DNA of 64,000 bases from Spirochaetia bacterium (GCA_963677925.2 CAXXYH010000004.1:384001-448000); one strand, 5' to 3'; positions 11,404 to 16,633 are shown, counted from the stretch's first letter. Notes: generated from the sequence alone by a model not told the origin. A program made the numbers and translations.

Positions 11404-13401
11404 TTATTCACCACCCTGAATGACCTGGCCGCGGAAAACCTTTTTTACAGCATCAACATGTTCCTGATGATCCTGGCCGCTTTCCTCGTCGCGGTTGATC
11501 TTTAATACTTCAACCTCGATCTGGTATGACCTGCCGGTCTGTTCATTAATTATTTCGTTTATAACCTGTCTATCGTTCTTTACGACTGAGGCTGTATATC
11601 CGTTTTCAAAACTCAAACAGAGCTTTCCGCCGTTAACGGTCCATCTCACCGACTGCTCTACCGCAGCGGCAAGTGTCAGCTTGCGCTTCCTGATACCTTC
11701 AAGAATGCGGCTCTTCTCATCCGAGCTGAATCCCCCGCCGCTTCCGGCCACTGTTGACTGAACAGCAGCTGATGTCGGTTCCGGTGAGGCATAAGCCGGA
11801 GCTGTCTGTGACGGAGCTGCGGGCATTGACGTTGGAGCCGCAGGGGCTGCTGCCTGAGCAGGAGGTTCAGAAACAGGCGGATCATCCACAAATCTTTCGT
11901 AGTAATCCTCATCCTCTTCATCATCGTCATAATCATCCGGATCAAAGGCGCCGCTTACAGCCGGCTTCTGTACCGGAGGCGCCTGCTGTTGCGCTGCGGG
12001 CTGCTGAGACTCTGCCGGAGCCTGTCCAAACGGCTGAGACTGGGGTTCAGGCCGTCCAAGCTGAACGGAAGGAGCATCATCCTTAACCAGAGGCGCATTC
12101 TGCTGTACCTGAGGCTGCACCGGCTGTACGGGTGCCGAAGGAGCTGCAGCAGCTGCCGGAGCAACCGTTTTTTCAACCTGAACCTGTGCCTGTACAGGAA
12201 CCGAAGGCTGAGTTTCAGTCTGAATCGCAGATTCAGAAACAGGGACTGCTTTTGCACCTGAAATTGCACGGCCTTTCAAGGCTTCAAGTCTGTCATATAT
12301 TTCTGCCGGAGAAATCCATGTACTTATATCTGAAAGAAGACTCAGAAGAAGCTCCAGCTCAAAGCGTTCATTAAGCGAATAGCGGACATCTCTGTAAAAC
12401 TTAAAAATTAGCTCAAGAGCCTTTTCAAGCTGGGGGCGTGAAAAAGTTCTTACCGCCGTATCGGAATATCTTGCCTTTGCATAGCCCAGCAGAGCCTCGC
12501 TGTCCGCACCGCTTTTGATAAAAAGCAGGCTTCTAAAGTATTCGGCAAGGTCTACAGCAAACTGCTCTACCGAAACTCCGCCGGCAATAATCTCCGAACA
12601 GAGTCTTATTACTTCCGCGGCATTCCTGCCGGCCATGGCATCGGCAATTGTATTCATGCTGTCCAGGCCGACCAGGCCCAGTTTCTCGCGTATTATTTCA
12701 AGGTTGATATTTCCATCTGAAAAGGCAACAACCTGATCAAAAAGCGTATAAGCATCACGCATAGAACCGGTAGCTTCCTTAGCTATCCAGAAAAGAGCGT
12801 CATCCTCCGCAGCGACATTCATTTCACGGCAGGCATCGGAAAGGCTGTTTTTAATCCTCTCCAGCCCAATCAGCCTGAAATTAAACTGCTGACAGCGCGA
12901 ACGGATTGTAGCCGGAACCTTGTGAATCTCGGTTGTTGCAAAGATAAAAATAATATATGGAGGCGGTTCTTCGATGGTTTTCAGAAGCGCGTTGAATGCA
13001 CTGTTTGAAAGCATGTGAACCTCATCGATAATATACACCTTGTAACGGCAGGAATTGGGCGCGAAAAGCACCTCGTCCTTGATTTCACGAATATCGTTTA
13101 CCGAAGTATTTGATGCTCCGTCAATCTCAATCACATCAAGGGCATTTCCCTTTGCTATCTCGGTACAGTTGCTGCAGACTCCGCAGGGTTCGGGCGTCGG
13201 ACCGTTTTCACAGTTGACCGCCTTGGCAAGAATTCTTGCTGCGGATGTTTTTCCGACGCCGCGTGGGCCTGAAAAAAGATAGGCGTGGGCAATCCTACCA
13301 GCCTTAATAGAGTTCTTAATAGTTGAAACTACAAATTCCTGTCCGACCAGCTCTTCAAAGCCGGACGGACGACGTCTTGATGCGGTTACTTCATATGCCA
13401 T
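11404..13401 (-). CDS. dnaX: DNA polymerase III subunit gamma/tau
   Basis: GPRGVGKTS, zinc module, IDEVHMLS, SRCQ; long Pro/Ala/Gln linker. Confidence 0.96.
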   Translation of the reverse strand: MAYEVTASRRRPSGFEELVGQEFVVSTIKNSIKAGRIAHAYLFSGPRGVGKTSAARILAKAVNCENGPTPEPCGVCSNCTEIAKGNALDVIEIDGASNTSVNDIREIKDEVLFAPNSCRYKVYIIDEVHMLSNSAFNALLKTIEEPPPYIIFIFATTEIHKVPATIRSRCQQFNFRLIGLERIKNSLSDACREMNVAAEDDALFWIAKEATGSMRDAYTLFDQVVAFSDGNINLEIIREKLGLVGLDSMNTIADAMAGRNAAEVIRLCSEIIAGGVSVEQFAVDLAEYFRSLLFIKSGADSEALLGYAKARYSDTAVRTFSRPQLEKALELIFKFYRDVRYSLNERFELELLLSLLSDISTWISPAEIYDRLEALKGRAISGAKAVPVSESAIQTETQPSVPVQAQVQVEKTVAPAAAAAPSAPVQPVQPQVQQNAPLVKDDAPSVQLGRPEPQSQPFGQAPAESQQPAAQQQAPPVQKPAVSGAFDPDDYDDDEEDEDYYERFVDDPPVSEPPAQAAAPAAPTSMPAAPSQTAPAYASPEPTSAAVQSTVAGSGGGFSSDEKSRILEGIRKRKLTLAAAVEQSVRWTVNGGKLCLSFENGYTASVVKNDRQVINEIINEQTGRSYQIEVEVLKINRDEESGQDHQEHVDAVKKVFRGQVIQGGE

Positions 13402-13473
13402 ACGCGAAAATTGTATATGATAATCGGGCCGTTATCAAGCTCGGAGTTGATCAGGATTCGGGCGTATCTGTGT

Positions 13474-14424
13474 TTATGCGGGTTTTACTGGAATACAGAT
13501 ATCGAATACATGCTTCCCTTCAGGGTGTTGTTTCGGATCATTTTTTGAGAGTTCGTAGCTCAGACCGTCAGCAGCCTCATATCCGCTGTCCGGCAGCCAG
13601 TCAGCACAAACCCAGTTCCAGGCATCACCATACTGATCAACATCAACCTCAAACTCTACCATTGCATACTTTCCGGCAGGCATGAGCATTTTACCAACAT
13701 CACCGCTAACCTCCGTGTCAGGTGGCACAGTCAGACAGACGCTGGTCCGCAGCTTTGTCTCATCAGTCAGGTTAGGATCATCATGATATACGCTCATCAG
13801 CTTTGTATCCGGAAAATTAAGCAGATCCCTCGCTCCTGCCCATTTGAAAAGCTTTTCATACAGGCCGGCAAATAATGCCTCATCCCCGGCATAGGGCCCG
13901 ATATAACGCACATAGGCTACCGTCATATCCTCAACATTTTCTACTCTGACATTTCTGCCTTCTACTTTCATTCGGTTCCTCCGTTCATCAATAATCTTAT
14001 GATCAAGATGATACGGCTTTGAACCGGCCTCAGCTTCACAATTCTTGCCCTTCATTTGCTCAATCTTGCTGTCCGCTTTGCAATCCTTGCTGAGAAGGCT
14101 TAAACGCCAGTCTGTTGCAGACTGATCATAATGTTCACGAAAGCTTCTGGCAAAAACAGATGATGAGCTGAATCCGCAGTCCAGTGCAATTTCAGTAATA
14201 TTCTTCTCTGTGCCGGCAAGCATACGGGCGGCTTTTTCCAGCCTGAGTCGTTTGATGAAAACATTCAGCGGCTCTCCCATAAAGGCTGTGAATATCCTGT
14301 GGAAATGATAGGGTGAAAACAAAGCGACAGCCGCCAGTCGATCGAGGTTCAGCTCCTCATCGAGGTGTGAATCTATATAGTCTATTACTCTGTTTATGCG
14401 CTGTATGTAATCCTTACTGCTCAC
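13474..14424 (-). CDS. AraC-family regulator with C-terminal GyrI-like effector domain
   Basis: N-terminal double HTH (FSPYHFHRIF, IALDCGFSSSSVFARSF); C-terminal YIGPY, DDP and WLPDSGY GyrI motifs. Confidence 0.92.
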   Translation of the reverse strand: MSSKDYIQRINRVIDYIDSHLDEELNLDRLAAVALFSPYHFHRIFTAFMGEPLNVFIKRLRLEKAARMLAGTEKNITEIALDCGFSSSSVFARSFREHYDQSATDWRLSLLSKDCKADSKIEQMKGKNCEAEAGSKPYHLDHKIIDERRNRMKVEGRNVRVENVEDMTVAYVRYIGPYAGDEALFAGLYEKLFKWAGARDLLNFPDTKLMSVYHDDPNLTDETKLRTSVCLTVPPDTEVSGDVGKMLMPAGKYAMVEFEVDVDQYGDAWNWVCADWLPDSGYEAADGLSYELSKNDPKQHPEGKHVFDICIPVKPA

Positions 14425-14815
14425 AGCACTCCAGCCACTTTTTCACTTTTTCCCTGAACTCACCGATTAGGAGATCAAAATCGGGCTCATTGATTCCCGC
14501 CCATCGGAACTCCACATGTTCATCAGAGAGTTTTATATCGAAATCCTTTGTACTGCATTTGTAAATAATTCCGGTGATGTGCCAGTTATCAAGAAAGGCG
14601 TTCCAGGTATCAACTATAACTTCCGGGATAATTTTCATTCCGGTTTCTTCGAAAACTTCCCTGGTTACTGCCTGCTCGGCAGTCTCTCCGAATTCAATAT
14701 GTCCACCCGGTAATTCCCAGACCGTGTTCCGATCAGTATTACGACGAAGAATCAGAACACGGCCGTCAGGATCCTGAATTAATGCCTTAATTGAAAAAGT
14801 TATTCTCCTTCCCAA
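14414..14815 (-). CDS. NUDIX hydrolase (MutT-like)
   Basis: Nudix box GGHIEFGETAEQAVTREVFEETG; LSDEH. Confidence 0.9.
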   Translation of the reverse strand: MGRRITFSIKALIQDPDGRVLILRRNTDRNTVWELPGGHIEFGETAEQAVTREVFEETGMKIIPEVIVDTWNAFLDNWHITGIIYKCSTKDFDIKLSDEHVEFRWAGINEPDFDLLIGEFREKVKKWLECCEQ

Positions 14816-14886
14816 AACGTTTTTCTCCTGATTTTTTCTGGTTAATCAGTGTATCAGCAGTTTCAGGATTTGAAAACTTTTATTGA

Positions 14887-15582
14887 TTAGAAAGCAAAGC
14901 TTCCCCCTATACCGCAGGCTATGCCTCGCATCATAAGATAGGTATTAGTTGACTCAATCGTTTTAGCAGCGGTAAGCCCCGTTGAGGGTCCAGTAAGATA
15001 GGATGCAGTCAATGTTAGCGGATTATAAATATCCCTGTACTCAGCAAACAGATTAACAGTTACCTGTTTGATCTTAATACCCAGAGATCCGCCGGCAAGC
15101 CATCCGTAACCGAAGGGTGCACTTGCTGAAAACTCAGTAAATCCGGCATATTCATCTGCCGCAGCAACATCGTCCGCCGCCCAGCCTTCAAGCGGAGTTA
15201 ACGTCGCATTCCAGCTCCCGGCGCCTCCTCCGAATGCCTTTATAACCACCGGCCCCATTTCAAACTTCAGCTGTAGTTTGATGTAGGCAAGGAAGTTATC
15301 AGCTATAAACCATGGCTTTGAAGGCGATACCGCATTCCCGTCCACTGATGCACCCTCAACCATATAACCGTGAAATTTACAGTAATCAAAGCCGACAGGA
15401 ATCTCAAGAAACTTACCAAGCCCGAGTGAAGTGCTTAGGCCGGATGTCAATGCGACAGCTCCATCATCATAAAGATATAGGCTTTCAGGCACAAATACTG
15501 AAATCTTTGTACCTGCTTCCTCAGCAAAAACAGCACTTCCTAGAATCAAAACTGTGCAAATTAAAACAGCAATTTTTTTCAT
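14887..15582 (-). CDS. Hypothetical exported protein, probable outer-membrane beta-barrel
   Basis: Signal peptide ending AVFA; amphipathic strands; C-terminal Phe (GIGGSFAF); AGGAG SD. Confidence 0.65.
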   Translation of the reverse strand: MKKIAVLICTVLILGSAVFAEEAGTKISVFVPESLYLYDDGAVALTSGLSTSLGLGKFLEIPVGFDYCKFHGYMVEGASVDGNAVSPSKPWFIADNFLAYIKLQLKFEMGPVVIKAFGGGAGSWNATLTPLEGWAADDVAAADEYAGFTEFSASAPFGYGWLAGGSLGIKIKQVTVNLFAEYRDIYNPLTLTASYLTGPSTGLTAAKTIESTNTYLMMRGIACGIGGSFAF

Positions 15583-15882: not shown

Positions 15883-15888
15883 AATAAA

Positions 15889-15973
15889 CGGAGAGAGGGG
15901 GATTCGAACCCCCGGTACCTTTCGATACACACGCTTTCCAAGCGTGCGCCTTCGACCGCTCGGCCATCTCTCC
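15889..15973 (-). tRNA. tRNA-Ser(GGA)
   Basis: Cloverleaf; anticodon arm CACGC-TTGGAAA-GCGTG; long variable arm; GTTCGAATC; no encoded CCA. Confidence 0.96.
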
Positions 15974-16010
15974 AGATATGAAATAATGATGTTTCTCCGA
16001 CTCTTAGCTT

Positions 16011-16098
16011 CGGAGAGAGAGGGATTCGAACCCTCGGTACAGACGAGCTGTACAACGGCTTTCGAGGCCGCCCGATTCAACCACTCTCGCATCTCTCC
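16011..16098 (-). tRNA. tRNA-Ser(CGA)
   Basis: Anticodon arm GCGGC-CTCGAAA-GCCGT; long variable arm. Confidence 0.96.
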
Positions 16099-16213
16099 CA
16101 GATGACTGCAAAAAAATTCTACATATCACTGTGGTTGAGTTTTTTAGGAAAACCATGTTTTCATAAAAAATCTCAAAAAACAAAATTATTCCGTCAGGAA
16201 TAATTTTGTTTAG

Positions 16214-16287
16214 TATACCCAAGAGGACTCGAACCTCCGACCTTTAGGTCCGCAACCTAACGCTCTATCCAGCTGAGCTATGGGTAC
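16214..16287 (-). tRNA. tRNA-Arg(GCG)
   Basis: GTACCCATAGCTCAGCTGGATAGAGCG; anticodon arm TTAGG-TTGCGGA-CCTAA; GTTCGAGTC. Confidence 0.95.
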
Positions 16288-16406
16288 AAGGGAATAAGAA
16301 ATCTGAGATTTCTTATTTTGAAAAATCTTTGATTTTTCATTTTTAGTATTCAATAAAAAAGAATACTTCAAGGTTTATATTATACTGTGTTTACAGTAAA
16401 AAAAAT

Positions 16407-16493
16407 CGGAGAGGGAGGGATTCGAACCCTCGGTACCGTTACCAGCACAACTCCTTAGCAGGGAGCCCGATTCAACCACTCTCGCACCTCTCC
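16407..16493 (-). tRNA. tRNA-Ser(GCT)
   Basis: Anticodon arm GCTCC-CTGCTAA-GGAGT; long variable arm. Confidence 0.96.
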
Positions 16494-16522
16494 GAATGAA
16501 ACCAGCCCTTACGGGCAAAATA

Positions 16523-16607
16523 CGGAGAAGGTGGGATTCGAACCCACGGAACCTTGCGGCTCAACGGTTTTCAAGACCGCCTCCTTCGACCACTCGGACA
16601 CCTCTCC
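16523..16607 (-). tRNA. tRNA-Ser(TGA)
   Basis: Anticodon arm GCGGT-CTTGAAA-ACCGT; long variable arm. Confidence 0.96.
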
Positions 16608-16633
16608 ATATTACAATAATTGTCGTGGGGTCT

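Follow-up and report, generated by a model that had tools for sequence, protein, structure and literature searches.

A candidate internal promoter and operator array in the linker codons of an AraC-type regulator gene with a GyrI-like domain

In the 64,000 nt stretch of DNA from a Spirochaetia bacterium that was analysed here (GCA_963677925.2 CAXXYH010000004.1:384001-448000, hereafter the window), a minus-strand gene at 13474-14424 encodes a regulator in which an AraC-type helix-turn-helix (HTH) domain is followed by a GyrI-like domain. The codons for the disordered linker between the two would appear to double as a regulatory region, in which three marbox-like units of the form nGCAAG-N6-8-AA, 21 bp apart, are followed by a -10-like hexamer, a Shine-Dalgarno (SD) sequence and an in-frame ATG. 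These elements exist and they co-occur, and comparison with about 100 homologous loci from the Spirochaetia, Bacteroidota and Bacillota indicates that each of them is under selection at the nucleotide level. The reading favoured here, at a probability of roughly 0.7, agrees with that put forward in the initial annotation of the window: the regulator would itself activate a promoter inside its linker, from which a separate protein made up of the GyrI-like domain only would be produced.

Elements within the linker and their conservation in homologs

All of the elements listed in the initial annotation were found again on the minus strand when the sequence was re-read. The features of the gene are:

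13474-14424, minus: full-length regulator gene, an open reading frame (ORF) with a GTG start, 316 amino acids, AraC-type HTH and GyrI-like domains
14104-14337, minus: AraC-type DNA-binding domain, residues 30-107 (Pfam)
14076-14091, minus: site 1 (distal), AGCAAGGATTGCAAAG, 20.5 bits with the Spirochaetia matrix, predicted centre about -82
14055-14070, minus: site 2, AGCAAGATTGAGCAAA, predicted centre about -61
14034-14049, minus: site 3 (proximal), GGCAAGAATTGTGAAG, overlapping the place of a -35 element, predicted centre about -40 to -40.5
14008-14013, minus: -10-like hexamer TATCAT, recognised from the sequence and its conservation in homologs
13978-13982, minus: SD sequence GGAGG, 6 nt 5' of the internal ATG
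13474-13971, minus: nested ORF from Met152 (ATG at 13971), predicted to give a GyrI-like-only product of 165 amino acids

Both domains of the regulator are recognised in Pfam. HTH_18 matches residues 30-107 (E = 1.2e-19, 70.8 bits against a cut-off of 33.6), the HTH_AraC profile also matches (56.1 bits), and the domain of about 100 amino acids with two HTH motifs by which the AraC/XylS family is defined is present. The GyrI-like match covers residues 158-314 (E = 3.5e-36, 125.3 bits, positions 2-155 of the 155 in the profile), and the order of the domains is that of the Rob-like architecture. The in-frame ATG at 13971 does open the 165 amino acid ORF that had been proposed, and its translation matches the GyrI-like family on its own (E = 5.8e-37, 127.8 bits).

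The units starting at 14091, 14070 and 14049 had been described as tandem repeats in exact register. The 21 nt register holds, but the units are imperfect and the second is shifted by 1 nt after GCAAG; Tandem Repeats Finder reports no repeat at the linker units. The elements are judged to be real because they are conserved in homologs, and not on the statistics of a single genome.

Homologs were collected in several searches. Of 61 relatives of the window's genome, 16 had a match at E up to 1e-30, and at the level of the class 51 of 401 had one at E up to 1e-60. A search of one genome per species gave 79 loci, mainly from the Bacteroidales with one from the Bacillota, and a protein database search gave 4,533 proteins at E up to 1e-20; wherever a database homolog bears a source name, that name is 'AraC family transcriptional regulator'. 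Codons were compared in 52 non-redundant homologs (less than 88% nucleotide identity, median 57%), nine near-duplicates above 88% having been removed. The rows left out are a partial sequence of 172 amino acids (L022), partial matches (L081, L085, L091-L094) and HTH-only loci (L096-L112). The column of the internal Met was read in 75 aligned genomic homologs and, separately, in the 120 best database homologs.

In the 52-homolog set, the two Ser columns of the linker are AGC in 43/43 and 41/41 cases, against 19% of the Ser codons elsewhere, and AAG encodes the Lys after each Ser in 44/45 and 37/43 cases, its share of the Lys codons elsewhere being 31%. Where the residue changes, GGC or CGC codons are used, and GCAAG therefore persists. 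The spacing of the units is exactly 21 nt in 49 of the 52, and the consensus array of the homolog alignment is AGCAAGAaTgGtcAA-N6-aGCAAgAttggtaAA. Spirochaetia homologs bear three nGCAAG units, the unit of site 1 being kept among 25 of them, and site 2 of the window is the counterpart of the distal site in Bacteroidota homologs.

An AlphaFold2 model was made from a 50-sequence alignment, from which two Prolixibacteraceae loci were excluded (L080 and L082, which have a single linker site and a reading frame that extends to about 475 amino acids, past the usual end of the GyrI-like domain). The mean predicted local distance difference test score (pLDDT) is 86.9, and the GyrI-like domain is confidently modelled. 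Residues 114-134, which are exactly the stretch encoded by the repeats, have a pLDDT below 50, and this part of the linker is predicted to be disordered. The initial annotation had suggested that the Ser-Lys heptads of the protein are a by-product of the DNA motif, which fits both this low pLDDT and the invariant AGC and AAG codons. The conservation of the 21 bp phased GCAAG at synonymous positions, for which it proposed a test, is borne out, these codons being nearly invariant across phyla. On the evidence of codon choice, the repeats are a nucleotide motif rather than a peptide motif.

The -10-like box has a fixed place relative to the array. In the 45 Bacteroidota homologs and in the Spirochaetia homologs the proximal unit starts 36 nt 5' of a conserved Tyr codon and the codon next to it. 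Among the 71 homologs with an internal start, A2 of the hexamer is present in 70, T6 in 70 and T1 in 49. The sole exception at A2 and T6 is L012, the row for which is out of register and which truly reads TATCCT. T6 is a third codon position and is common to eight different codons. The Spirochaetia form of the box is TAnnnT, and in 45/45 Bacteroidota homologs it is TAnnTTnG or nAnnTTTG; a box of the TAnnTTnG type is the Bacteroidetes -7 consensus (PMC7366714). The distance from the box to the ATG is 33-42 nt. The layout of the sequence is that of a class II promoter, in which a site covers the -35 position, a -10 can be recognised and the -35 is weak or missing. In the start-site tables for Bacteroides thetaiotaomicron (PMC7366714 supplements), a search with six 9-mers found only a tRNA promoter and a site at BT_0593. 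The BT_0593 site lies 34 nt and not 36 nt from its box, does not have the CAA half, and was judged to be due to chance. There is no 'GyrI' entry in the same tables.

The Met152 column is M in 60 of the 75 aligned genomic homologs and in 113 of the 120 best database homologs (V in 4/120). The remaining genomic homologs have K, G, T, E, N, L, I, V or a gap, and with residues so varied the column is therefore not a hydrophobic structural position. The SD sequence and ATG are displaced by a few codons in L035 and L028, and the start is GTG in L087. A start at the domain boundary is present in 25 of 29 Spirochaetia homologs (24 ATG, 1 GTG), with GGAGG 5' of it in 22/25, compared with 3/172 of the other in-frame ATGs, and a 4 nt SD core in 25/25, compared with 21/172. 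The conservation of Met and SD, for which the initial annotation proposed a test, is found in these counts. The residues that encode GGAGG differ (RR as CGG AGG, WR as TGG AGG, ER as GAG AGG, GR as GGG AGG, KE as AAG GAG), and AGG makes up 17% of the Arg codons elsewhere in these Spirochaetia genes. A conserved internal in-frame start at the boundary of the ligand-binding domain, by which regulator genes with two products are recognised, is present here.

At the internal start of the 45 Bacteroidota homologs GGAGG is mostly missing. Their leader is A-rich (A in 73% at -3, 67% at -6 and 91-96% at -14/-15) and has an A+T content of 78%, compared with 59% at other ATGs. Start sites that are A-rich and have no SD have been described for the Bacteroidetes phylum (PMC7366714), and by its composition the Bacteroidota leader matches the signature known for that phylum.

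Copies of the module in non-coding DNA, and its loss

The arrangement of site and box is also present 5' of whole genes. With the internal-site matrix, 23 of 45 Bacteroidota loci were found to have a further same-strand site 50-130 nt 5' of the start of the gene itself, where 0.18 would be expected, as derived from 17 stray matches in the 335,678 nt scanned. All 23 upstream sites have a TA box after them, which lies at +36 in 21 cases and is displaced by 1 nt in two. A composite pattern gave two matches over three genomes (15.6 Mb) and no control matches, one of the two being inside L082, where it is the internal module, and the other at the promoter of an AraC-GyrI paralog. The paralog (L136:517-1543, minus strand, 307 amino acids), which is in the genome that holds L072, has the site and, 36 nt on, TAGTTTTG in its upstream promoter and lacks an internal one, a pattern suggestive of cross-regulation between paralogs. 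The copies of the module in non-coding DNA cannot be put down to coding constraint.

A relaxed pattern was tried as a means of defining a regulon in five Bacteroidota genomes and was rejected, as it gave 10 matches against 6 in the control, with only 4 of the 10 at genes of the family. A near-identical 43 nt stretch (GCAAGCAATGTGAA...GAACATTTG), found by this pattern in L140 and L143 from two Bacteroidota genomes, is probably inside a conserved gene. A regulon search of the window's genome with the Spirochaetia matrix gave 313 matches of at least 13 bits and was rejected as too unspecific.

Four Spirochaetia homologs have no in-frame ATG (L017, L132, L133, L134). In the first three the SD is degraded (GGAAG, GGCAG) and T6 of the box is lost (TATCAG, TACGGC). 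The sites are unrecognisable in L017, and in L132 and L133 the distal and proximal sites are degraded and the middle one is kept. L134 retains GGAGG and CATATT. Likewise, there is no boundary ATG in the homologs without a linker site (L017, L019, L021, L023-L027, L029). As aligned, then, the loss of the internal ATG is in most cases accompanied by that of the remaining elements. Stand-alone GyrI-like genes that start at the equivalent Met are present at two loci of the Bacteroidales, L092 and L094; L094 has no HTH and an in-frame stop upstream, and it retains one site together with the box and the ATG.

The proposed circuit and its alternatives

There is no conserved neighbour gene, the largest cluster of neighbours accounting for 8 of 75 loci. 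It follows that only the product of the gene itself is co-inherited with the sites, and for the same reason there is no operon-based clue to the ligand. The DNA-binding domain is related to the Rob/MarA/SoxS subfamily, the phmmer matches against the PDB being STM3175 (7r3w, 1.5e-24), SoxS (1e-14), RamA (5e-13), Rob (2.4e-12) and MarA (1.1e-8). The marbox is a 20 bp asymmetric sequence, AYnGCACnnWnnRYYAAAY (PMC3709825). In a hand alignment in which 'forward' was assumed to be the printed consensus read along transcription, the Bacteroidota consensus unit atAGCAAGAaTgGtcAA.c agrees with it at 12 of 14 specified positions, with a mismatch at C7 (which is A) and no consensus base at A18, and site 1 of the window agrees at 10 of 14. 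With -12 to -7 assigned to the box, the proximal unit would extend from about -50 to -31 and have its centre at about -40.5, a predicted position that is within the class II range of -36 to -55 given for MarA (PMC12052159).

Under self-activation, one gene with two promoters would give two proteins. From a long mRNA, which in many Bacteroidota would come from an autoregulated upstream promoter, the 316 amino acid sensor with its AraC-type DNA-binding and GyrI-like ligand-binding domains would be made. The full-length protein would bind the units, probably with a single monomer on each unit whose two HTH motifs enter successive major grooves, and when liganded it would recruit RNA polymerase to the internal promoter in class II style. 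A short, SD-led mRNA starting near 14001, about 7 nt past the TA box, would then give the GyrI-only protein of 165 amino acids (about 18 kDa), to which internal initiation at Met152 on the long mRNA may contribute. This short protein would most likely soak up the inducing small molecule, both protecting the cell and damping the response, a sequestering role that is suggested by analogy to STM3175/YgiV, TipAS and AlbAS.

Several observations weigh against self-activation. That the regulator and not some other factor binds the sites is argued from their co-inheritance only. The core of the units is GCAA and not the GCAC of the marbox, and direct repeats at about -61 and -82 are unlike the reverse-oriented class I arrangement of MarA. 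No upstream site was found with the internal-site matrix in the other 22 of the 45 Bacteroidota homologs, nor is a consistent one (P1) seen in the Spirochaetia loci with the Spirochaetia matrix, so that the non-coding evidence comes from the Bacteroidota. A scan for the sigma-70 consensus calls no promoter at TATCAT, because the -35 element is absent. Within the window's own genome (5.04 Mb) the repeat pattern is at chance level: GCAAG-N16-GCAAG occurs 34 times, much as other in-frame spacings do (37 times at 24 nt, 33 at 30 nt), and three GCAA at 21 nt spacing occur 8 times. The genome scan that the initial annotation had proposed for further copies of the motif thus shows no enrichment of the 21 nt spacing. 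The information in the Spirochaetia matrix is low, with site scores from -14 to 20.5 bits alongside the many genomic matches noted above. The homologs are kin, which means that the conservation tests overstate significance. The S-K, Y and W-R residues are conserved as amino acids too, and residues 142-151, immediately before Met152, are predicted to be helical (block pLDDT 74-85), for which reason selection on the protein may account for some of the conservation of W-R and Tyr.

It is also possible, if rather unlikely, that the short protein arises by internal translation initiation at Met152 only, as in the tipA gene discussed below, and that the nGCAAG units are autoregulatory operators that work, for example, by repression, as a roadblock or through looping to the upstream site. 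Internal initiation, as documented in the sources cited below for TipAS and AlbAS, would fully explain the conservation of SD and ATG, and the missing promoter call and -35 element sit well with it. It would leave unexplained why A2 and T6 of the box do not vary and keep their fixed distance of 36 nt to the proximal site, why the box changes to the Bacteroidetes -7 form in Bacteroidota homologs, and why the same geometry of site, 36 nt and box forms an evident promoter 5' of genes of the family. L094, where site, box and ATG are retained without an upstream HTH frame, also argues against it.

That the nucleotide conservation serves some other purpose, as the site of a different widespread DNA-binding protein or as an RNA-level element of the mRNA, seems quite improbable. 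There is no Rfam match in 13300-14900 of the window at E up to 1, and the motif is found 5' of the box in non-coding promoter DNA as well, outside the transcript of that promoter. It travels with the gene across phyla, with no conserved neighbour, and it resembles the marbox that is recognised by the nearest characterised DNA-binding domains. The degeneracy of the motif in the Spirochaetia and the relaxed pattern, for which 6 of the 10 matches are off-family against 6 in the control, would fit a use of this kind. It is very hard to credit that the SD and ATG survive as remnants from the ancient joining of a regulator gene to a GyrI-like gene, a fusion of a kind that has been proposed (PMC3048380), and the repeats a functionless duplication in the linker: the pattern may be at chance level in the single genome, but relics would not hold synonymous positions invariant at a median nucleotide identity of 57% across phyla, would not show a ribosome signal and a box type that change with the phylum, and would not be lost together.

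A broader proposal can also be made, for which the odds appear about even. The cross-phylum Rob-like subfamily would be a self-contained and horizontally portable 'sense-and-sponge' gene, a one-gene inducible circuit for the sequestration of small molecules such as antibiotics or toxins, in which the linker sequence is dictated by the operator array and promoter embedded in its codons. By way of these, the full-length protein, once liganded, would turn on the mass production of its ligand-binding domain as a protein in its own right. Each phylum would use a dialect of its own, with a sigma-70 -10 and SD in one and the Bacteroidetes -7 box and A-rich leader in the other.

Genomic setting and comparison with known systems

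The gene 5' of the regulator is:

14414-14815, minus: NUDIX hydrolase gene (ORF and Pfam NUDIX)

The GTG start of the regulator overlaps the final NUDIX codons by 11 nt (14414-14424, minus), which suggests translational coupling, and the full-length regulator is probably co-transcribed with the NUDIX gene. No site was found 5' of the regulator at the window locus (L001) with the Spirochaetia matrix. Directly past the regulator stop there is a promoter-like TTGATA-17-TACAAT (13438-13410). The gene 3' of this, at 11404-13401 on the minus strand, starts MAYEVTASRRRPSGFEELVGQ and encodes 665 amino acids with a long Pro/Gln/Ala-rich low-complexity middle; by eye it resembles the gene for the DNA polymerase III gamma/tau subunit, and is presumably dnaX. 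Five tRNA genes are clustered at 15888-16608 on the minus strand (Ser-GGA, Ser-CGA, Arg-GCG, Ser-GCT, Ser-TGA), and the long ORFs called across them are read-throughs of tRNA genes. Elsewhere in the window's genome there are three more GyrI-like matches (C3:716605, C4:1508684 and C4:219699, the last of which is weak), none of which is a full-length homolog of the window protein by the genome homolog search.

If the favoured reading is true, this would be a clear case of dual coding from the Spirochaetia to the Bacteroidota, in which the same bases encode a protein linker and an operator, promoter and ribosome-binding site, and it would mean that regulatory DNA can shape the sequence of a 'disordered linker'. 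The annotation 'AraC family transcriptional regulator' would overlook a second product per gene in a subfamily with thousands of database members, the Met being kept in nearly all of the 120 best. GyrI-like domains trap antibiotics, albicidin being an example (PMC10414762), and an inducible product consisting of that domain only would be an overlooked mechanism of tolerance. As a compact and self-contained module, the gene would also permit direct tests of AraC-family activators under the differing promoter and ribosome-site rules of the phyla.

Genes of this general kind are known. In TipAL/TipAS of Streptomyces lividans and AlbA/AlbAS of Klebsiella oxytoca, a MerR-family gene gives a full-length regulator and a short protein of the ligand-binding domain only, which sequesters the ligand and is able to damp activation (PMC3048380; bioRxiv 10.64898/2026.09.21.753095). 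What is shared is a sensor-regulator gene that upregulates itself and has an in-frame product of the ligand-binding domain, which is predicted in the present case. The domains differ, being a MerR-type HTH and an all-helical TipAS-type domain there and an AraC-type HTH and a GyrI-like domain here, and the short form there is an alternative translation product, whereas an internal promoter and operator array are predicted here in the linker codons. As Pfam finds only the AraC-type HTH and GyrI-like domains, the gene would work like the TipA/AlbA type without being a member of it.

Rob, which is known here by description alone, also joins an AraC DNA-binding domain to a GyrI-like domain, and no internal start is reported for it. 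Rob, MarA, SoxS and RamA use a single marbox with a GCAC core, unlike the two to three direct repeats with GCAA(G), 21 bp apart and inside the gene's own coding sequence, that are found here. The best solved match is STM3175 of Salmonella (PDB 7R3W), which has the same two-domain architecture; its ligand-binding domain alone traps albicidin and confers resistance, autoregulation has been suggested, and YgiV of E. coli is the ligand-binding domain only (PMC10414762). The linker of STM3175 is only about 10 amino acids long, and in the available text of that paper neither an internal promoter nor a short isoform is described. In addition, the one- and two-domain forms are in that case encoded by distinct genes, each in another species. 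The alignment of E. coli YgiV with the window protein begins at about residue 156 of the latter and is weak (24% over 94 residues), and ygiV is directly 3' of ygiW with no remnant of an HTH.

Among AraC-family genes, Shigella virF also gives a long and a short protein, VirF30 and VirF21, and a leaderless mRNA supports translation of the shorter form; the term 'internal promoter' occurs five times in that paper (PMC5101355). The mRNA proposed here is led by an SD and not leaderless, and the short form would be the ligand-binding end only. The short form of VirF reportedly retains the DNA-binding end. Direct repeats with a spacing of about 21 bp are also the sites of AraC-family activators at promoters of the XylS, MelR and RhaS type, where the proximal repeat overlaps the -35. 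The likeness considered here is one of arrangement, and those sites are intergenic where the present ones are in coding sequence. In the open-access literature, no paper was found that joins 'GyrI-like' with 'internal promoter', or with 'AraC' and 'isoform'. The theme of one regulator gene with two proteins is a known one, to which the present gene would add an operator and promoter in the codons of the linker.

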